A program made the position numbers and the translations under genes. A stretch of 64,000 nucleotides of DNA from Escherichia phage vB_EcoM_G9062, in the sequence record NC_054920.1. One strand, 5' to 3'. Shown piece by piece: positions 16,011 through 26,657 of this stretch (position 1 is its first letter; every line of letters begins with the position of its first letter). A model generated the notes under the pieces. It ran no database searches. It saw only the letters and a list, made by a program, of their open reading frames with translations, and was not told where the DNA came from.

Positions 16011-16064
16011 TCCTCATGTTATGTCAGTAAGACTACTATAACACAACACGAGGGACTTGTAAAC
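16011..16064 (-). promoter_or_regulatory. Early promoter plus leader, copy A of a 54-bp exact repeat
   Basis: Minus strand: GTTTAC, 17 nt, gTTATAGT, leader with SD gaggaac; identical to 31874-31927. Confidence 0.6.
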
Positions 16065-18121
16065 TACATTTTGAACTTTTTAGACATTCCGTTGATGTTA
16101 ACCAAAGAAGCTAAGATTTGAGAAACTTCGCTTTCCTCTTCTTTTGATTCTTCTACAAGGAATTGATTAAATCCAGCCATTGGACGAACTTCACCAGTTT
16201 CCATTAGATGGTCGCCATCATATACTGATTCTTCTAATTGTTCAGAAGGAGGAACGATTGTACCTTCGATTAGATACTTGTTATAAGCAGTTTCTTTCAT
16301 AAAGTAAGTACTTACTTTATTAATCTTCAGTAAAATTCCACGTGGTAGAATAACTTCAGCTTCTGACGGAAATCCTGATAAATGACCCGGAACGATAACT
16401 TTGATTCGCTCAGCTCCTTTAATTACCATACCCACGCTAGTTTCAGCATCTTCATTAGCATATGTAGAATGACTACCCATATGCATCAAATCTTCTGCAT
16501 CAACGGAACCTTCTCCTTCACCAGAAAATACTGCGCCGGAATCATCTAGAGCCATATAGTTTTTACCATGCTCACCGAAGATATTTGGTTTAAGCGATGT
16601 GGATACGAAGTTCTTGAAATAGAACATTTTATTTTCAATGTTATGACGCAAAGTTTTAAAGGTAACTTCTTGTCCACGGTAAAGTGTAGTTCCTGGAGGA
16701 AGAACTGAACCTTTAGCGAATGCAGAATCAAGCGTCTCAATATGTTTAATAGCTCGTTCCATATATTCTTCACGGGTAGAATCTGGTTTACCCAAAAGGA
16801 ACGAGTTCATTTCAACATATGAATCTGCACAATAATCTTCAATTACATCAGATTCAGCTTGAGTTAATCCTTTTGGAGTTACTTCAGTGCTTGCGTATTC
16901 ATATGCCTGAGCAGCAGATTCATTAATCAATTTATAAATGCCATTCATGACAAATTGAATAATAGCTGTCTTTTCATCTGGCGTAGCTTTAGAACCTTTA
17001 ACCAAATCATTGATAATTTTCTTAATAACATCAAAGCTATTAGAAATATTAATATCAGCAAGATCGCTTAAAATTTTATCAGTCTTATAATCAAAGAATT
17101 CTTTATTCTTTAAATATTCTTGAGAACCTTGATATGTTATATCGCTCTGTAACTTGATAGATGGATCACGTAAACGTGCATGGGCTAATGCAATATGATT
17201 TCGGAAGCTTTCGAGTTCATAATCACTAGATTTAAAACGAGAAGCGCTTCTCATACCGCCTATAGCTCCTTTGCTGAAGTTTGAACCAATTTGAATAACG
17301 CCAGAGTTCATTGGTCCTTCTGCTTTATACACCGGAACTTTAGATTCAAACTCTTGATATTTCTTAGCAGCGAAGCTATCACCCTGAAGTGAAGCATCAA
17401 CAGTAGAATATTGAGCTTGTGCTGCTAATCGACGACTAATTTTAGTTTTTTGAATAACAGCTTGATCCGTGCGCTTATCATTTTCTAAAGCAATAGAAGC
17501 AGCAACAGCGACAGCTTTAGGAACAGCATTACCTGTTTTAACATCTACATAAACATCACCGACCTTCGATTCAACTTTTGTGAATAACTCAGTTGAAATA
17601 GGAGGTACACCTGGAATGTCTTCTAAATTGGCATTTTTACGGTAAACCATAATATATGCATACTTTTTATCATAGTCCCAGATTTCCTTTAAAAGAACAT
17701 ATCGACCTGCTCCTTTAGTACGTACTAAACGGTCAGCAATAACTTGCATTTGACGAGCAGCGCCATTTGTTTTACTCTTTAGTACGCGGAATAAGCATGC
17801 ATCAATTTTATACTGTTTCATTGTTTGAAGAGCAGTATCAAAAACAGCGTTAATGACGCCAATTGGATTTCCACCCAAGTTTCTAAGTTTAACCAGTGAT
17901 AATTTCTCGTTGACACCTATCATTACGATATGCATCATTTTATCGCCCGGCTTAACGTTTTTATTTGTATCACCTCCAGAGGTGTATGTACAAAATCTAA
18001 ATCCAGGAAGCACGCTTTCTTCGCCGGCTTGAATAGCAAAAATTTGAGGTATTTTATGCTTAGGATTTAAGTTAACAACCGGCGCCGAAGCGCCGTCAAA
18101 TAATTCTGTAATAAGTTCCAT
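16064..18121 (-). CDS. Alt-like ADP-ribosyltransferase paralog (685 aa)
   Basis: Shares N-terminal and C-terminal regions with alt incl. TLYRGQ, YFKNFVSTSL, EAEVILPRG; central region divergent. Confidence 0.85.
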   Translation of the reverse strand: MELITELFDGASAPVVNLNPKHKIPQIFAIQAGEESVLPGFRFCTYTSGGDTNKNVKPGDKMMHIVMIGVNEKLSLVKLRNLGGNPIGVINAVFDTALQTMKQYKIDACLFRVLKSKTNGAARQMQVIADRLVRTKGAGRYVLLKEIWDYDKKYAYIMVYRKNANLEDIPGVPPISTELFTKVESKVGDVYVDVKTGNAVPKAVAVAASIALENDKRTDQAVIQKTKISRRLAAQAQYSTVDASLQGDSFAAKKYQEFESKVPVYKAEGPMNSGVIQIGSNFSKGAIGGMRSASRFKSSDYELESFRNHIALAHARLRDPSIKLQSDITYQGSQEYLKNKEFFDYKTDKILSDLADINISNSFDVIKKIINDLVKGSKATPDEKTAIIQFVMNGIYKLINESAAQAYEYASTEVTPKGLTQAESDVIEDYCADSYVEMNSFLLGKPDSTREEYMERAIKHIETLDSAFAKGSVLPPGTTLYRGQEVTFKTLRHNIENKMFYFKNFVSTSLKPNIFGEHGKNYMALDDSGAVFSGEGEGSVDAEDLMHMGSHSTYANEDAETSVGMVIKGAERIKVIVPGHLSGFPSEAEVILPRGILLKINKVSTYFMKETAYNKYLIEGTIVPPSEQLEESVYDGDHLMETGEVRPMAGFNQFLVEESKEEESEVSQILASLVNINGMSKKFKM

Positions 18122-18124
18122 GAT

Positions 18125-20173
18125 TTATCCTTGAACGAACTTGTAAGGCATGTTTGCAATATCTATGCAAGACGCAATAATTCCAAGAGATGATTCTACT
18201 TTCTGTTTAACATTTGATGAAACAAATGATGCAAAGTCAACTCTATCTTCTATATCACCTGTCATTGTAACCAATTCACCAGTTTCCATTAAATGGTCTC
18301 CGTCATAGATTACCGATTCGGTGAGTTCTTCTGTGGTCATAACTTCAGCTTGAATAAGCTTGTTGTTAGTTTTAACTGTTCCATCATTGTAAGATGCATC
18401 GGTTATTTTATTAACTTTGACCATTAATCCACGTGGCAAAATGACTTCCATTTCATTTGAAGGTGCTAAACTTCCACCGGGTAAAACAACATTGACCTTA
18501 TCAGCCCCAGTAATAACCCATCCAATTCCAACTAAATTATCGCTAGAATTTACTAGTCCTTCATCAGTTTTATCAATAGAAACACTTAGACGCTTTTCGT
18601 CTGGTAAAACACCTACAGATGAATCAGTCATCCAAGTACCAAAAATATTTGGATATAATGATGTTGACACAAAGTTTCTAAAATAAAAAACTCGATTTTT
18701 TACCATTGCTTCATATATTGAAGGTAACATTCGTTGTGAACGATACAAAGTAATACCTTTTGGTAATCGTTCACCATTTTTAAAGGCTGAATCTAAATTA
18801 TCAATAGCTTTTTCTATGTCAGATGCTGTCAAAATACTTGTACGCTCATCTGGATTATATAATCCCAAAAGAGCATTATTTATATCTACATATCCTGAAC
18901 CTACGTATTCACGAATTCCGCGTTTTTGCGCCGGTGTGTATTTAGATGAATCTTTATTTTCGACTATAGGATGTAATGACCATCCAGCTGTAAGAGCATA
19001 TCCACGTAATTCTCTTCGAATAATCTTTGTTTTTATTGCATTCCAAGAATTTTGTACTAACTCATTTGCAGCATCTTGGTTTAAATGCGAATGTTTGTTA
19101 ATATTTCTTTCAAACCAAGCACCTTTATATTTTTCTAAAGTATCATCGACGATAGAAGCAATAGTTTCTAAAGTTTTTATTGAAGTAATAGATTCTTTTC
19201 GTAATCTTTCTAAAGCTTTATTTTTTATTTCTGTATTAACATCAGATTCTTTATCTTCAGGAATTATAGAAGCTTCTCTGAATGCCATTCCAGCTGTAAC
19301 ACTATTAAGAGCATTCTCTAATGCAAATCCTGAAGTAGAAATAACAGTTAATTCGTTAGCATCGGAAATTAAAGGCGCATCAGCGGGTTTATTTAATTCT
19401 GCTGCTGAAGCCTCAAATTTTTGAAACATCGGTGTTTCAAATCTAGAAGATTCCAATGATTGACTTTGCGCAATTGCTCTACGGGAAATTTTAACTTTAA
19501 CGATTACAGCTTGGTCAGAACGTTTATCATTTTCTTGTGCAATAGATGCTGCAATTGCCTCATTTTTAGTTACTTGAGCTCCAGTATCTTTATTGATATA
19601 AACATCACCGACCTTCGATTCAACTTTAGTAAAGAGCTCGGTACTAATTTCTGGAACTCCTGGAATGTCTTCTAGTGATACATTTTTGCGATGTATAAGA
19701 ATATATGCATACTTTTTATCATAATCCCAGAGTTCCTTAAGAAGGACGTATCTGCCGCCTGAACGACTACGGATAAGTCTATCAGCAATAACTTGAATTT
19801 GTCGAGCTTGACCAGCGGTTTTAGACTTAAGAATACGGAGCATACAAGCATCAATTTTATATTGACGCATTGTTTGCATTGCAACAGTAAAAACTGAATT
19901 GATATAATTAATTGGGCTTGGCCCAAGACCTTTCAATTTAGCAATTGAACCTTTAGCGGTTAATGTAAAAGGAACAATATGCATCATTTTATCGCCCATT
20001 TTTAAATCGCGATTAGTATCACCTCCAGATGTATAGGTACATAAACGAAAGCCTGGCTGTTCAATTGCATCATCAACGTGAACTGAAAAAATTTGCGGTA
20101 TTTTCTTCTTTGGATTTAAGTTTGTAATCGGAAGAGTAGTATCTTCGTCAAATAATTCTGTAATGAGTTCCAT
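18125..20173 (-). CDS. alt: Alt ADP-ribosyltransferase, capsid-packaged
   Basis: 682 aa from second Met; TLYRSQ, YFRNFVSTSL, EMEVILPRG motifs (R-S-E type). Confidence 0.85.
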   Translation of the reverse strand: MELITELFDEDTTLPITNLNPKKKIPQIFSVHVDDAIEQPGFRLCTYTSGGDTNRDLKMGDKMMHIVPFTLTAKGSIAKLKGLGPSPINYINSVFTVAMQTMRQYKIDACMLRILKSKTAGQARQIQVIADRLIRSRSGGRYVLLKELWDYDKKYAYILIHRKNVSLEDIPGVPEISTELFTKVESKVGDVYINKDTGAQVTKNEAIAASIAQENDKRSDQAVIVKVKISRRAIAQSQSLESSRFETPMFQKFEASAAELNKPADAPLISDANELTVISTSGFALENALNSVTAGMAFREASIIPEDKESDVNTEIKNKALERLRKESITSIKTLETIASIVDDTLEKYKGAWFERNINKHSHLNQDAANELVQNSWNAIKTKIIRRELRGYALTAGWSLHPIVENKDSSKYTPAQKRGIREYVGSGYVDINNALLGLYNPDERTSILTASDIEKAIDNLDSAFKNGERLPKGITLYRSQRMLPSIYEAMVKNRVFYFRNFVSTSLYPNIFGTWMTDSSVGVLPDEKRLSVSIDKTDEGLVNSSDNLVGIGWVITGADKVNVVLPGGSLAPSNEMEVILPRGLMVKVNKITDASYNDGTVKTNNKLIQAEVMTTEELTESVIYDGDHLMETGELVTMTGDIEDRVDFASFVSSNVKQKVESSLGIIASCIDIANMPYKFVQG

Positions 20174-20210
20174 CATATCCTCTCTAGTGTTTATTCTATT
20201 TATAAAATTA

Positions 20211-20226
20211 AAGGCCCGAAGGCCTT
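20211..20226 (-). terminator. GC hairpin between the ligase operon and alt
   Basis: aaggcc-cgaa-ggcctt with T-rich flank on the minus strand. Confidence 0.4.
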
Positions 20227-20414
20227 TAATAATCTATTGGTAAGAGAGTACGGTATATTTCAAACTTTGGACCTTTTTCATAGGCATCAAATGTTTCTGT
20301 GAATTTATTATAAGCATATGCATCTACAAATTCGAGAATGACTTGTGATACAGAAGTAGAAACATCTCCACCTTCTTTTTGAGCAATGACAATTGTTTCT
20401 AAGTAAGCTTTCAT
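20226..20414 (-). CDS. Hypothetical 62-aa protein
   Basis: ATG start overlapping the ligase stop. Confidence 0.55.
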   Translation of the reverse strand: MKAYLETIVIAQKEGGDVSTSVSQVILEFVDAYAYNKFTETFDAYEKGPKFEIYRTLLPIDY

Positions 20415-21874
20415 AGACCAGTTACCTCATGAAAATCACCAAATACATCCTCGAATGTATTAGCTTTAGTTTTATCTTCACGTAAACGAATCGCAATCGG
20501 AAGAAATAATTTAACGTAATCAGTGCGGCCATCAGATTTTAACCAACCGTTGCATTCGCACTCTAGAATTTTTCCAATATAATAATTTTGGTTTTCCATA
20601 ATGCGAGTACGGTCAAGTTCATGCGATTTTACACCGGCTTTATCTTTTAAGCCTGAACCAGCATTTACTTTAATTTTTCCACACTCTGACTCAAGAATAA
20701 ATCCACCTGCTTTAGTAGGGTCTTTACGGTGAGGATAAATTCCTACAATTTTTAAATCAACATCAATTACTTCTTTAAATTTATAGAGATTTTTTGAACG
20801 AGCATTTTCCCATAATCCATCGATATTTTTGAGAATAATACCTTCAAGACCTTGGTCAATATACTTTTTATAAATTACCTTAGCTTCATCTAGGTTATTT
20901 ACTACCTGGTTTTCAATTAAAATTACTTTATCATATCCCGATGTCATTTGTTCTAGTTTAGAAAAACGTACATCATATTTTAAACGAAACGCTGGAAGAC
21001 CGTATATTTCTACCAACGGGACATAATCCCAGACCTGAAACTTCATACATTGAGCTTCTTTTTCAGAAATGGTTCCTTTTAAGGATTTATTGGCGATTCC
21101 ATTAGAAGTAGTACGAGATTCCGCTACTTCGGCGAATTCTTTGGCTTTACTAATTTCAGGATAAGCATCAAAAAGAAAATCTAGGCCTTCTGGTTCCTTT
21201 TTAACTTGCTCATGGTATACCAATTCGCCATCAATTAACACACCTTCTGGATGAATCTGGCGGGCTTCAGCAGTCATTTTGATTAACTCTTCCTTAAGAA
21301 GATCTAATCCTAGATATTCATTACCAGCTCGTGATAAAAGACGAACATCATCTAATTCATCGCCTCGGACTTCAGCAAAACACCGAGCTCCATCTGCTTT
21401 TAACTGCGCAAAGGCTGGAAACTTGATATTCTTATTAATGCCTTTTTCATCATAAGAACTTGCAAGCATTTGAGGTTGTTCAGGAATTAAACCTGGCCAA
21501 ACTTTATTTGCAATAGATACTGAAGCACCGCATTCAAGGTCTCGCATCATAACTCGACGCAAAACTTCAACATCATCCTTTTTACCATCAGTGATATATC
21601 CAGTTAATTCCTCAATTGCAGCATTTCCAGTCAATTTCCGAGTAGCTAACGTGAATTCAATGAAGTCAAGCATATCGGTAATAGTCAGCATTCCAAAACT
21701 CTGGGTAGCAATACCCGGTTTAGGCCATTTCTTGATATAATACTGTAACCCACGAGAATAAGTCAGACGATATACTCGTTTAAGCAATTCATTATCTTTA
21801 TTCTTTTCAAGAATTGCTTGCTTCTGCTTAGTTGAACCAATAGATGCTATTTCGTTCAGAATTTTAAGAATCAT
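20411..21874 (-). CDS. 30: ATP-dependent DNA ligase
   Basis: 487 aa, same length as T4 DNA ligase. Confidence 0.93.
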   Translation of the reverse strand: MILKILNEIASIGSTKQKQAILEKNKDNELLKRVYRLTYSRGLQYYIKKWPKPGIATQSFGMLTITDMLDFIEFTLATRKLTGNAAIEELTGYITDGKKDDVEVLRRVMMRDLECGASVSIANKVWPGLIPEQPQMLASSYDEKGINKNIKFPAFAQLKADGARCFAEVRGDELDDVRLLSRAGNEYLGLDLLKEELIKMTAEARQIHPEGVLIDGELVYHEQVKKEPEGLDFLFDAYPEISKAKEFAEVAESRTTSNGIANKSLKGTISEKEAQCMKFQVWDYVPLVEIYGLPAFRLKYDVRFSKLEQMTSGYDKVILIENQVVNNLDEAKVIYKKYIDQGLEGIILKNIDGLWENARSKNLYKFKEVIDVDLKIVGIYPHRKDPTKAGGFILESECGKIKVNAGSGLKDKAGVKSHELDRTRIMENQNYYIGKILECECNGWLKSDGRTDYVKLFLPIAIRLREDKTKANTFEDVFGDFHEVTGL

Positions 21875-22140
21875 TGTTCATCCTTTAGAGTTTGGTTTAC
21901 AGCTCTATTATAAATCAATTCATCATTAAGCTCAGTCAAAGACCTGTGGTACGTGGTTCTAACTTTATTTCCTTGCATCCAGTGCTTGACGTAAATGAAA
22001 CCTTGCTCTACACATTTTTTAAAAATTCGTTCGTCTTTTTGAGCTCGGAATTCTGGATTGCATCTAAAAAATTGATTTACGTGACCGTAATCACGTGTAG
22101 TATTACCTTCATTTTCATAAATAGTGTGAACAACAAACAT
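21871..22140 (-). CDS. Hypothetical protein (30.1 position)
   Basis: 89-aa ORF, overlapping stop/start junctions. Confidence 0.6.
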   Translation of the reverse strand: MFVVHTIYENEGNTTRDYGHVNQFFRCNPEFRAQKDERIFKKCVEQGFIYVKHWMQGNKVRTTYHRSLTELNDELIYNRAVNQTLKDEQ

Positions 22141-23003
22141 TAGAATGCTCCTTGGAAAATATTATCACCACTAGTAAATCTATTAAAATATCCTGCATCA
22201 CCAGGCTTAGTATAACTCCACGTATGGAATGGATTCATATGATACGGGTGTGTATAATATGGATTATATGGATGTGTATAATATGGATTATACGGATTAA
22301 ATTCAGGAGTTCTCCAGGTAGTGTTCCAACGAAAAGAATCGTTTTTAACCATCTTCTCAATTACATCTTTTATAGCTTTTTCACTATCAAAACTTTCTTT
22401 ATTTTCCTTCGGTGAAAAAAGCTTATTTTCTACATCATTCCATGTATAAACTCGCTGCGCAGTTTTTGGAATATTGTCACGCTCTCCTCGAGCCATCCAA
22501 TAAACAGGAACATTTAATATTTCACTCGCATGATCGCAGTGGTGGGCGAGATCGTCAATATAACAAATTACATTATATTTCTCTTTTGCCTTTTTGAATA
22601 ACTCTTCTTTTGAAGAATCATGACCACACATCATTACTTCTGAGAAGGCACCAGGAAAAAGAGCATTCAAATTAAATTGACGATTCAGCAGAGCGTCAAT
22701 AGAATCACCCAATGCTGTAACAGCTACAAAATTATAATCTTCTTTTAATTTGTTAATTACACACAGGGCATCTTTATATGGAGACAAGTAACGAATAAAA
22801 TCTGAACGATTGTATTTTTCAATTAACTTGACGCCAAGTTCTTCATCACAATTAAAGAGTTTACCAGGAGAAATAAATTTCTCATCTTGGATCATTTTTA
22901 AAATATGTTCTAACGGAAGATTATATTTCTGAGCAAAATAAGGAAGGCCTGATTGCCAGCTTAAACATACTCCATCAATATCAGTTAAAATAGTAGGCTT
23001 CAT
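22140..23003 (-). CDS. HAD-superfamily phosphatase-like protein (30.2 position)
   Basis: N-terminal DxDGV-type motif (LTDIDGVCL); C-terminal Tyr/Pro-rich repeat NPYYTHPY x2. Confidence 0.65.
   Translation of the reverse strand: MKPTILTDIDGVCLSWQSGLPYFAQKYNLPLEHILKMIQDEKFISPGKLFNCDEELGVKLIEKYNRSDFIRYLSPYKDALCVINKLKEDYNFVAVTALGDSIDALLNRQFNLNALFPGAFSEVMMCGHDSSKEELFKKAKEKYNVICYIDDLAHHCDHASEILNVPVYWMARGERDNIPKTAQRVYTWNDVENKLFSPKENKESFDSEKAIKDVIEKMVKNDSFRWNTTWRTPEFNPYNPYYTHPYNPYYTHPYHMNPFHTWSYTKPGDAGYFNRFTSGDNIFQGAF
22245..22295 (-). repeat. 24-bp in-frame tandem duplication inside the HAD-like gene
   Basis: gtgtgtataatatggattata repeated with 1-2 mismatches; encodes NPYYTHPY twice. Confidence 0.7.
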
Positions 23004-23458
23004 AGAGAGTCTCTTAATAGGTTTAACACATCAATAAATTCAGCTTCAGTTAGTATTGTATCATCTTTTGTTAGACCACTAGCCATGCTGTGCTTCAAAA
23101 CTTTTCCTTTCGAGGCTTGTAATGCATCACGAAAGCCCTTGTTTTGGATCGCTGCTTCAAAATATGCATTTGTATACAGCTCTTTCCACGCCGGGGAGTA
23201 TCTTGAAAACGGAACTCCCAGCCAGAAGAGGGTCCCACGGTCCTGAGCTCTTGCATAAGACCTTCCAGCTTGTTGGGCGGCAAGCCCGGATAACCCAAAT
23301 ATACGACGTTGTTGTTCAGCATTTTTCACCTTGCATCCTTGGAGGAATCCTTCAAGACCTCCGAATTGAATACCATCCATGACGAAAGGCCATTGGGCGA
23401 AATTACTTAATGCACACGATGGCCATCTAAAATTGCTTCTAATCTCTAACTCAGACAT
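23000..23458 (-). CDS. NADAR / YbiA-like domain protein (30.3 position)
   Basis: Motif LSNFAQWPFVMDG resembles the YbiA signature FSNFAxWP; ATG start 6 nt inside the track ORF, which begins at TTG. Confidence 0.7.
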   Translation of the reverse strand: MSELEIRSNFRWPSCALSNFAQWPFVMDGIQFGGLEGFLQGCKVKNAEQQRRIFGLSGLAAQQAGRSYARAQDRGTLFWLGVPFSRYSPAWKELYTNAYFEAAIQNKGFRDALQASKGKVLKHSMASGLTKDDTILTEAEFIDVLNLLRDSL

Positions 23459-23657
23459 TTTCAATACTTATAATTTCAACATCAGCCCAATGACCATAGC
23501 AAGGAAGACGAAATTCAACTGGCCAGTTAGGGTCCTTTTCTAATATAATAGACTTAACTTGTGGTTCTTCATGTTCATCAGTATATGGATTTTTATCTGT
23601 TACTTTATATGTGACCTTAATGTACTGAATTCCAAAAATCTTATTAATTATATTCAT
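23451..23657 (-). CDS. Hypothetical protein
   Basis: 68-aa ORF with ATG start, operon context. Confidence 0.5.
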   Translation of the reverse strand: MNIINKIFGIQYIKVTYKVTDKNPYTDEHEEPQVKSIILEKDPNWPVEFRLPCYGHWADVEIISIENV

Positions 23658-23851
23658 ACTAATTCCTTTAATCCGTAAATAGGAGATAATTCATCACCCA
23701 TACGAAGGTCTTCATTTCCATCTACCCAGGAAACAATATAAGCCTCTTTTATTTGAATACCACTCCATTTAAATGGAGGTAGAACCTTAGAAATTAATCC
23801 AGGTATACCAACTCCCTTTAATTCAACAGTTTGACCTAAAAAGAATTTCAT
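23654..23851 (-). CDS. Hypothetical protein
   Basis: 65-aa ORF, overlapping junctions. Confidence 0.5.
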   Translation of the reverse strand: MKFFLGQTVELKGVGIPGLISKVLPPFKWSGIQIKEAYIVSWVDGNEDLRMGDELSPIYGLKELV

Positions 23852-24138
23852 TAGAACCTCATCTGAAAACCGTGCGATTTAACATTACTACCGCCAATAT
23901 CAGAAATGTTAATTTCACTCGCAATTGAAGGGTCAATGTCAATTTCGCGATTGAGTTTAGTGATAGCTAAAGTATCACGCCCATTTACAGTACGAAACTC
24001 TAAAGGACAAACCACATCAACGTAGTTTTTAATCGATTCGCTAGTAGGTTGCAAATGTGCAGGAAGGTCTTTAGGCGACTTTGAGAAAACAACTTCACAG
24101 AAATTTTTGCGGGTGTCAAAATAAGTAGTCATAAACAT
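23851..24138 (-). CDS. Hypothetical protein
   Basis: 95-aa ORF. Confidence 0.55.
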   Translation of the reverse strand: MFMTTYFDTRKNFCEVVFSKSPKDLPAHLQPTSESIKNYVDVVCPLEFRTVNGRDTLAITKLNREIDIDPSIASEINISDIGGSNVKSHGFQMRF

Positions 24139-24179
24139 AGTATTTTCCTCAGTAAGGGGCCGAAGCCCCTCATTTTATT

Positions 24180-24545
24180 TTAAATATCAAATTCGTTAAG
24201 AACTACATCAAAGATTGCTTCAAGATGCTCAGGTTTAGCTCTGTTACTCAGAATATGACGAATCCAAGTTTTAACCAGAAGCTTGCGATTAACGCCATTC
24301 CAGCAAGGATGAGTCCCTAAATCGCGTTGACGAAAATCATCATCCAAAGCGATTTTAAAAGAAGAACCTTCCATTGTGATTGAAACCGTGATGCCATTTT
24401 CAAATCGCATATAAACGTAGTTAGGAGTCATATATTGTTCAATTTCGCATACTGATCCATTTTGATGTTTCCAAAGGCAAATAGTATCAATAGAACATGC
24501 AATACCATTAGAAAAATATTTACGTTCAAAGTTGATGTAGTTCAT
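24180..24545 (-). CDS. Hypothetical protein
   Basis: 121-aa ORF with SD ggaga; early promoter upstream. Confidence 0.6.
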   Translation of the reverse strand: MNYINFERKYFSNGIACSIDTICLWKHQNGSVCEIEQYMTPNYVYMRFENGITVSITMEGSSFKIALDDDFRQRDLGTHPCWNGVNRKLLVKTWIRHILSNRAKPEHLEAIFDVVLNEFDI

Positions 24546-24577
24546 TTTTATTCTCCGAGATGTTTAATTGCGGTACA

Positions 24578-24611
24578 GGTATATAATATCATATCCTGTA
24601 CCAAAGTAAAC
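24578..24611 (-). promoter_or_regulatory. T4-type early promoter
   Basis: Minus strand GTTTAC, ~17 nt, TGaTATTATAT. Confidence 0.5.
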
Positions 24612-24615
24612 TATT

Positions 24616-24984
24616 TTATGCAACTTTAATCCAATTATCTAAATTTAATTCACCTTTGGCTTTCATTTTTTCAATCAAGAGGTCAGCGGTAATACGACCA
24701 TTTTGATACCACGTAACATCTTCAGAGTAACCAGTTTCTTTATCTTCATAAGTCTCACAGCGAATTTTACCAAGAATCAAAGTTTTTAATTCGTATGTAT
24801 CTCCAGTAAAAAAGTTAGTTAACATTATTTTCCAAGAGAAATCATCAGAAGGACCTTCAGGAGTCATACAATCTACAAATTCAAATTGTTCTTTATATAA
24901 ATGCCACTGAAGTTCTTTAGTTTCGATAGCTTTATAGCCGTCGTGATCTTTACCTTTGATGTATGAGTTAAGATTGATTTTCAT
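24616..24984 (-). CDS. Hypothetical protein
   Basis: 122-aa ORF with SD aaggaga. Confidence 0.6.
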   Translation of the reverse strand: MKINLNSYIKGKDHDGYKAIETKELQWHLYKEQFEFVDCMTPEGPSDDFSWKIMLTNFFTGDTYELKTLILGKIRCETYEDKETGYSEDVTWYQNGRITADLLIEKMKAKGELNLDNWIKVA

Positions 24985-25009
24985 TTTATTCTCCTTTGTT
25001 TGTGTAAAA

Positions 25010-25041
25010 TAATACTATCACAAAGGAACCATACTGTAAAC
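25010..25041 (-). promoter_or_regulatory. T4-type early promoter
   Basis: Minus strand GTTTAC, ~17 nt, TGaTAGTATTAT. Confidence 0.5.
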
Positions 25042-25070
25042 AACTTTGTGCAATCTTTGGAAAATAAAAA

Positions 25071-25090
25071 AGGACTCCCGAAGGAGTCCT
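25071..25090 (-). terminator. Rho-independent terminator
   Basis: aggactcc-ttcg-ggagtcc followed by T6 on the minus strand. Confidence 0.55.
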
Positions 25091-25094
25091 CAAC

Positions 25095-25313
25095 TTATGC
25101 TTTCTGCTTACCAAAACGAGAAGCATCATCTCGAAGAACCGCACGTGCTCGGCGCATGATCTTCTCAACAGTTTGATTGATACGAGAGTTCGACCCACGC
25201 TTGTAACCAGCGCGTTTAGAATCACCAACTTTCTTTTCAACTGCTTTCTTTGCTTTAACTTGTTTTGCCATTATAAATTCTCTTTTAAATGAAAATGCAG
25301 GACTTATTGGCAT
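25095..25313 (-). CDS. Small basic protein
   Basis: 72-aa ORF (or 58 aa from MAKQVKAKK...); Lys/Arg-rich. Confidence 0.5.
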   Translation of the reverse strand: MPISPAFSFKREFIMAKQVKAKKAVEKKVGDSKRAGYKRGSNSRINQTVEKIMRRARAVLRDDASRFGKQKA

Positions 25314-25560
25314 TGCCTGCGCAAGCCCTCAAAGGGGTACTTAGGTTTTGAATATTTACCGACAGGATAACCATAAACCTCGTCATCATACCACCAAGAC
25401 TTACACAGATAACACTTTTCTGACGCATGATAGTAACATTCAAGAGGTACACTGTAAAACTGCCGGGGTCTTAAAACTATAATGATTCGCAAATCATTAA
25501 TCAGACAGTTCGACGGCTCCTCGTTTTAACTTCACACTAAGGCAGTGACTCTCCAATAAA

Positions 25561-25809
25561 TTACTTCAGTGTTACCACAAAGTGACGAACTGCTTTTCGT
25601 GCAGCAGAAGCCAAAGGCTTAGCATATTTAAGTTCATCTTTTTCCTGAAGCTCAGCAGCTAGTGCAGTTTGAGCAGGATTCAGATGTTTGAAATAACGCA
25701 GGATTTCAAGAGCTTCGGCTTCAACATCAATAGATGCGCCATAGTTTTCGTGACCATTATTCCATGCGTTTCGTTGCAGTTCAAGAGCGTGTTGTAATTG
25801 TTTAATCAT
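25561..25809 (-). CDS. rIII: RIII lysis inhibition accessory protein
   Basis: 82 aa, as T4 RIII; position between the 30.x ORFs and gene 31. Confidence 0.85.
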   Translation of the reverse strand: MIKQLQHALELQRNAWNNGHENYGASIDVEAEALEILRYFKHLNPAQTALAAELQEKDELKYAKPLASAARKAVRHFVVTLK

Positions 25810-25956
25810 TTAAAAATTCTCGTTAGAGATTAAAACTCGGTAGTCACGTTCTTCTGAATTTCATCTTCTTTCGACAGATCTCTCAGTTGTAGACTACCAC
25901 ATAGAATTGTTCGGTTAACTTATTATTCCGACACCCAATTCATATTATTATTTATA

Positions 25957-26292
25957 TCACTTATAAAGACACGGAATAGCTTTATAATGACAGGTAACGA
26001 ATTTTTGTTTAATTTCTTTTGGCTGCTTAAGACCCAGAGCTACAAAAGGATGCGGAACGTTTCGAATTTGACCAACTGGAAGAGAAGTCAAATCACCAAC
26101 TTCACAAAAACCTTCAGGAACATCAGGACCGACAGAGTGAATTACACACAGTTCAGGAACTTCACCTTGGACACGTTTACCGATAATAAGTCCTGATTCT
26201 GTAACTTCTTCATCACCGGCTTGTGCAGGTTCAGAAACTAAAATAACATATTCACCGACAGCACGAATTGGTAGCTGTTGTACTTCAGACAT
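25957..26292 (-). CDS. 31: Gp31 co-chaperonin (GroES analogue)
   Basis: 111 aa, as T4 gp31. Confidence 0.9.
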
Positions 26293-26348
26293 CGTTTTTC
26301 CTTTTTGTTAACAGATGAATTAATAATAACAAATAATTCTTAAAGCAT

Positions 26349-26657
26349 TTATTTACCAATAAATTGGAGTAAATGCTCAACTTTCATACCATTAACGGAA
26401 ATCAATTTGTCAATAGAAAAACCTCGCCATGCGCCAAGTTCAACATCAAATACTGGAATCATGTCAGTAGATTCTTTCCGAGTAGATTCAGTCAATTTAC
26501 CAGTTTGCATGGTTGGCATAAAGTCTGCATCACGAGTACCTTTCATAGTACGAATAGTACCATCAGACTTTTCAAAAACTACGTTTGAAACACCCATGGA
26601 CAATTTAGTTTTCAAAATTTCGCGAATTGCTACTTTCTGCTCAGTTGTCAGTTTCAT
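26349..26657 (-). CDS. Hypothetical protein (31.1 position)
   Basis: 102-aa ORF. Confidence 0.6.
   Translation of the reverse strand: MKLTTEQKVAIREILKTKLSMGVSNVVFEKSDGTIRTMKGTRDADFMPTMQTGKLTESTRKESTDMIPVFDVELGAWRGFSIDKLISVNGMKVEHLLQFIGK

Follow-up and report, generated by a model that had tools for sequence, protein, structure and literature searches.

The stretch of DNA analysed here (64,000 nucleotides of Escherichia phage vB_EcoM_G9062, hereafter the window) carries a small ORF located two genes away from DNA ligase and four and five genes away from two Alt-type ART genes. Since this ORF had been taken for a NADAR/YbiA-like protein, the question arises whether it indeed belongs to this family and, if so, from what it removes ADP-ribose: from DNA modified by a host toxin or from targets of the phage's own transferases. 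Our answer, which none of the findings contradicts and in which we have high confidence, is that the ORF is the orthologue of T4 gene 30.3 (adfN, anti-DarT factor NADAR), coding for a free-standing NADAR-fold N-glycosidase that defeats DarTG1. The original prediction for this gene was correct, yet what it predicted was already known in print.

Gene 30.3 and its setting

The predicted 152-aa ORF is real and can be read directly on the minus strand. Gene 30.3 (adfN) occupies positions 23000..23458 (-), running from the ATG at 23458-23456 to the TGA at 23002-23000, and consists of 459 nt, or 152 codons and a stop. The ORF listing also includes an alternative start two codons upstream, a TTG at 23464; the T4 annotation uses the ATG start. 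The encoded protein has the same length as T4 gp30.3 and is identical to it in 150 of 152 positions (99%), both substitutions, V47A and I125M, being conservative. An identical protein is encoded by Escherichia phage LYE-01. The match to Pfam PF08010 (Phage_30_3, 'Bacteriophage protein GP30.3') covers the whole length (E 5.2e-70; 234 bits, the cutoff being 36). At the nucleotide level, 699 phage records match bases 22000-24200, among them Shigella phage ESh18 with an identity of 97.9%, and the segment is part of a T4-like (Tequatrovirus) genome. The gene order alt, alt.1, 30, 30.1, 30.2, 30.3, 30.4 is that of T4 and is kept from alt to 30.7:

16064-18121 (-), second Alt paralogue, Pfam PF03496
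18125-20176 (-), alt, Pfam PF03496
20226-20414 (-), alt.1
20411-21874, gene 30 (DNA ligase)
21871-22140, gene 30.1
22140-23003 (-), gene 30.2
23000-23458 (-), gene 30.3 (the AdfN ORF)
from 23451, genes 30.4, 30.5 and onward

The product of the alt.1 orthologue (20226-20414, minus strand) matches a recent Pfam family, PF24647 'Phage blade protein' (E 2e-29). Another ORF, at 23095-23322 (-), lies in the +1 frame within 30.3 and is equivalent to the annotated internal ORF 30.3' of T4; it would encode 75 aa and matches Pfam DUF2883 (E 4e-49). Its frame is open across the 75 codons in most relatives and is shortened in loci L002 and L013. The start is unconserved: phages whose 30.3 is 84-86% identical, and also L003, have an Ile or Thr codon in place of the ATG. 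Whether 30.3' is a real gene with a second product is therefore doubtful.

The NADAR fold and the active-site residues

The assignment began with a 13-residue motif, LSNFAQWPFVMDG, corresponding to residues 17-29 (23372-23410, minus strand). This N-terminal NADAR signature aligns with FSNFAAWPIKVDG of E. coli YbiA. Within an alignment of 72 gp30.3 homologues reaching down to 35% identity (A1), residues A16, L17, S18, N19, F20 and F25 are invariant. A single sequence says little about more distant relationships in this case. Its search against PDB sequences returned E. coli YbiA as the sole match, at an E-value (1.3) that is insignificant alone, and the window protein by itself did not match Pfam NADAR (PF08719) even at E-values up to 10. 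The family as a whole is more informative. The family profile matched the PDB chain of YbiA (2b3w) with an E-value of 0.0085, and hhalign aligned A1 with E. coli K-12 YbiA over 90 columns at a probability of 93.5% (E 2.3e-7). PF08719 is matched individually by 28 of the 72 family members (best E 1.5e-7), so that the link to Pfam NADAR shows only through other members of the family.

Structure comparison points in the same direction. In the AlphaFold2 model of window gp30.3 (pLDDT 92.1, pTM 0.88), helices span residues 35-41, 47-54, 58-66, 89-105, 107-115 and 138-151, accompanied by small strands. When the model was compared with the PDB using Foldseek, matches with a probability of at least 0.94 were confined to three structures, all of them NADARs, whereas the next ones did not exceed 0.05. 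The top match was YbiA (2b3w; E 1.5e-4, TM 0.69), the other two being the Phytophthora NADAR (PnNADAR) with ADP-ribose (8bau) and the DarT1-associated NADAR of Geobacter lovleyi (8bat). In other words, the likeness to the FSNFAxWP signature of YbiA, noticed originally in the sequence, becomes significant with the family profile and is confirmed by fold comparison. Taken together, the profile and the predicted structure support a NADAR/YbiA fold for the window protein. More exactly, it falls into the phage gp30.3 subgroup of NADARs, which is neither the YbiA subfamily proper nor the DarG1 subfamily.

The catalytic residues of characterised NADARs have not been lost. Their codons and the C-terminal helix are located as follows:

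23351..23353 (-), codon of E36 (GAA, read directly), the catalytic Glu corresponding to YbiA E48, PnNADAR E43 and E. coli C7 NADAR E88
23330..23332 (-), codon of K43 (AAG, read directly), corresponding to YbiA K55, PnNADAR K50 and C7 NADAR K95
23090..23092 (-), codon of H123 (CAC, read directly), the last-strand residue that tells NADAR subfamilies apart
23003..23047 (-), C-terminal alpha-helix, residues 138-152 (model helix 138-151, intact)

E36 is invariant in A1 and aligned to YbiA E48, while K43, the phosphate- and adenine-coordinating lysine, is aligned to YbiA K55 and kept in at least 90% of the 72 homologues. H123, also invariant, comes after the model strand 120-122 and pairs with YbiA E125 once the hhalign alignment is extended one position further. 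According to published work (PMC11543638; PMC11125620), YbiA has Glu at this position of the last strand, DarT1-linked NADARs have Asp, and the gp30.3 proteins of phages have His; H123 of the window protein is thus of the phage type. The importance of the other two residues and of the C-terminus is known from experiments with relatives: the T4 AdfN mutants E36A and K43A are impaired, and RB69's own adfN allele is inactive, a frameshift having cost it the 15 C-terminal residues (PMC11825919). The window allele is of full length and its C-terminal helix is intact; hence, we expect it to be active.

Substrates and relation to other NADARs

For the window protein itself, the analysis establishes the gene and its orthology, together with fold and residues; that the enzyme is active and acts against DarTG1 is known from the literature on the 99%-identical T4 protein. 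Purified T4 gp30.3 hydrolyses guanosine-ADPr but not thymidine-ADPr in vitro (Cihlova et al., Toxins 2024; PMC11125620), which bears out the prediction that a NADAR at this locus would remove ADP-ribose from guanine in DNA. Johannesman et al. (Nat Commun 2025; PMC11825919) mapped T-even resistance to DarTG1 to 30.3, renamed the gene adfN, and found gp30.3 of T4 both necessary and sufficient for this resistance. T4 and T2 become sensitive to DarTG1 when adfN is deleted, ectopic AdfN rescues RB69, and AdfN removes ADP-ribose from DarT1-modified DNA (PMC11825919). The suggested role in countering a DarTG-type defence therefore holds and can be refined to DarTG1 (guanine) rather than DarTG2 (thymine). 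As to the mechanism, host DarT1 would block replication by attaching ADP-ribose to the N2 position of guanine in phage DNA. AdfN would hydrolyse the guanine-ribose bond, E36 and H123 flanking the distal ribose and K43 holding the diphosphate and adenine, with the result that ADP-ribose would be released, the DNA restored and the phage able to grow on hosts carrying DarTG1. By analogy, we infer that the window allele, with its V47A and I125M substitutions, would behave like T4 AdfN.

There is one complication. In uninfected E. coli, T4 gp30.3 gave no protection from DarT1 (PMC11125620), and T4 AdfN rescues phages outside the T-even group weakly (PMC11825919). These two observations imply that its in vivo activity depends on something present in T-even infection, and a further T-even factor is indeed reported to be required for full in vivo activity of AdfN(T4) (PMC11825919). 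The failure as an antitoxin in uninfected cells also suggests that DNA repair may not be the sole role of the protein. It could be argued that what AdfN mainly degrades is not DNA adducts but soluble molecules derived from ADP-ribose (immune signals or NAD by-products, for example), as was proposed for phage NADARs in general by Iyer et al. 2022 (PMC9503650). However, there is direct in vitro evidence for de-ADP-ribosylation of DNA, with which the DarTG1 phenotype goes along (PMC11125620; PMC11825919), and conserved NAD-salvage genes were not found as neighbours in the loci examined. We therefore consider a mainly soluble substrate to be improbable.

The ART genes of the window bring up another possibility, namely that AdfN erases ADP-ribose marks set by the phage's own Alt, ModA and ModB, making up a writer/eraser pair that acts on protein, RNA or phage DNA. 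The genes in question, at 16064-18121 and 18125-20176 (-), are arranged in tandem 3-7 kb from 30.3 on the same strand, and both code for full-length PF03496 proteins (685 and 683 aa). In this respect the window differs from T4, where a single alt is accompanied by the remnants alt.-1 and alt.-2. Of the two copies in the window, the downstream one is 99% identical to T4 Alt, whereas the identity of the upstream one is only 41%; the tandem pair also occurs in Shigella phage ESh18 and in some IMG/VR contigs. A co-location of NADAR and ART genes in T4-like phages was noted earlier by Iyer et al. 2022 (PMC9503650). Nonetheless, among 66 distant viral loci with gp30.3 homologues (36-46% identity), only two have an Alt homologue within 6 kb, and about 60 have none there.

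The timing of expression might also differ. The T4 late-promoter consensus TATAAATA (20204-20197, minus strand) precedes the alt start codon (ATG at 20176) by about 20 nt, which suggests that alt is not co-regulated with 30.3; this is a consensus match, and the whole-window count of such matches (12, with 8.9 expected) is not above chance. A late promoter would fit Alt, a virion-packaged protein of T4. Ligase and Alt were named roughly correctly as neighbours, but 'early cluster' is a loose description as far as alt is concerned. A further TATAAATA, at 25949-25956 (-), directly follows the ORF 25957-26292 (-), apparently the gene 31 co-chaperonin.

The specificities do not agree with a writer/eraser pair either. 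Alt is an arginine-specific protein transferase. The NADARs tested so far, by contrast, cleave N2-guanine-ADPr and not thymine-ADPr (PMC11125620), and the reported phenotype of the adfN deletion is specific to DarTG1 (PMC11825919). Alt-type writers and an eraser do share one region, as had been pointed out, but the idea that AdfN erases the modifications made by Alt is unsupported, and so is the suggestion that it protects phage DNA from the phage's own enzymes, given the guanine specificity and the lack of an Alt neighbourhood in most distant loci. Overall, we find it highly improbable that AdfN serves to reverse the phage's own ADP-ribosylation.

The protein encoded in the window shares E36, K43, H123, the C-terminal helix, the flanking genes 30.2 and 30.4, and the ATGA overlap with 30.2 with T4 gp30.3/AdfN. 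With the DarG1/DarT1-associated NADARs (the BC4488 subfamily, including the G. lovleyi protein 8bat and that of E. coli C7) it has in common the NADAR fold and the conserved Glu and Lys; both also hydrolyse guanine-ADPr, as known for the T4 protein in the case of gp30.3. In the published phylogeny, gp30.3-type NADARs are nearest to the DarT1-linked ones (PMC11825919). There are, however, differences from DarG1. Window AdfN, an antitoxin-like protein classed as a DNA ADP-ribosylglycohydrolase, is an orphan, flanked by 30.2 (HAD) and 30.4, and among the window ORFs no DarT-like ORF was found beside it (ORF listing, Pfam). It has no N-terminal extension, the NADAR signature starting at residue 17 of 152, and its last-strand residue is His123 instead of the Asp of DarG1-type proteins, in line with the literature. 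Furthermore, T4 AdfN is unable to replace DarG1 in uninfected cells. Other phages have acquired NADARs independently: AdfN(Bas32) and AdfN(Bas60) belong to other NADAR clades and, like the T4 type, are specific for guanine-ADPr and counter DarTG1, but in contrast to the T4-type enzyme they work without T-even infection (PMC11825919).

The best match in both fold and profile is YbiA of E. coli (2b3w), which RefSeq annotates as 'N-glycosidase YbiA' and which has the motif xSNFAxWP...DG...E..FQ..K in common with the window protein, but the identity is about 17-24% and YbiA belongs to a host operon under LexA control. A housekeeping N-glycosidase of the YbiA type, acting on riboflavin-pathway intermediates, is hardly credible here, because the subfamily-defining Glu (YbiA Glu125) is replaced by an invariant His (His123) in the gp30.3 family, the gene is carried by a lytic phage, and the published phylogeny mentioned above places gp30.3 elsewhere.

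Gene 30.2 and the search for a partner

If AdfN(T4) requires a T-even factor, the adjacent gene 30.2 is a candidate. Its product is 90% identical to T4 gp30.2 and had no match in Pfam. Nevertheless, the original description of this neighbour as a HAD-like phosphatase proved accurate. Foldseek matched the gp30.2 model with YfnB (3i76) and with the deoxyribonucleotidase-like structures 3bwv and 2jao (E 2e-8 to 6e-8), and the HAD motif residues D8 and D10 (motif I DxD), K132 (motif III) and D150-D151 (motif IV acidic pair) are invariant in 54 homologues. By sequence and model, approximately residues 1-200 form a predicted HAD-superfamily domain that is 5'(3')-deoxyribonucleotidase-like and has a Rossmannoid fold. 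The AF2 model has a pLDDT above 90 over the N-terminal 200 residues and below 50 in the C-terminal tail, which is disordered and rich in Pro, Tyr, His and Asn. In the region coding for the tail there is a 24-bp tandem repeat (22242-22297, minus strand; 2.3 copies, 90% match) with a repeated NPYYTHPY unit, and a 10-residue insertion relative to T4 gp30.2 results from it.

The stop codon of 30.3 overlaps the start codon of 30.2 within an ATGA at 23000..23003 (-), as it does in T4, and this arrangement suggests that the two genes may be co-expressed or translationally coupled. Every close relative keeps them side by side, as do five of the distant loci, whereas about 60 other loci do not. Since adjacency is confined to closer T4 relatives and a few distant loci, a functional link between 30.2 and 30.3 has no specific support. 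Nor does co-distribution discriminate: 30.3 is found in 1,509 phage records and 30.2 in 1,437, spread over nearly the same genera, which is to be expected of any two old and widespread T4-like genes. Within 3 kb on each side of the gp30.3 homologues in the 66 distant loci, the commonest neighbour cluster is present in just 8 loci, the 30.2 cluster and ligase in 6 each; therefore, gp30.3 homologues have no conserved operon partner. It is tempting to think of gp30.2 as the T-even factor needed by AdfN(T4), either processing the released ADP-ribose or recruiting or stabilising AdfN, yet we regard this as a long shot.

Sequence signals are uninformative with regard to the transcription unit of 30.3, because over 20000-26500 neither sigma-70 promoters (25, against 23.2 in shuffles) nor terminators (5, against 3.5) are in excess. 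GC-rich hairpins followed by T-runs, resembling intrinsic terminators, occur at 24155-24170 (+) and 25070-25091 (-), in the 30.6/30.7 and 30.8/30.9 gaps; here too the count is not above that of shuffles.

What, then, does the window add? In biological terms, no more than has already been published on AdfN, except for an intact and probably active allele in another T4-like phage. Nonetheless, it is instructive that a real counter-defence enzyme was recognisable from a motif of only 13 residues by a reader using the sequence alone. As for the phage itself, it should resist hosts carrying DarTG1, and knowledge of this kind may help in predicting the host range of therapeutic T4-like phages.
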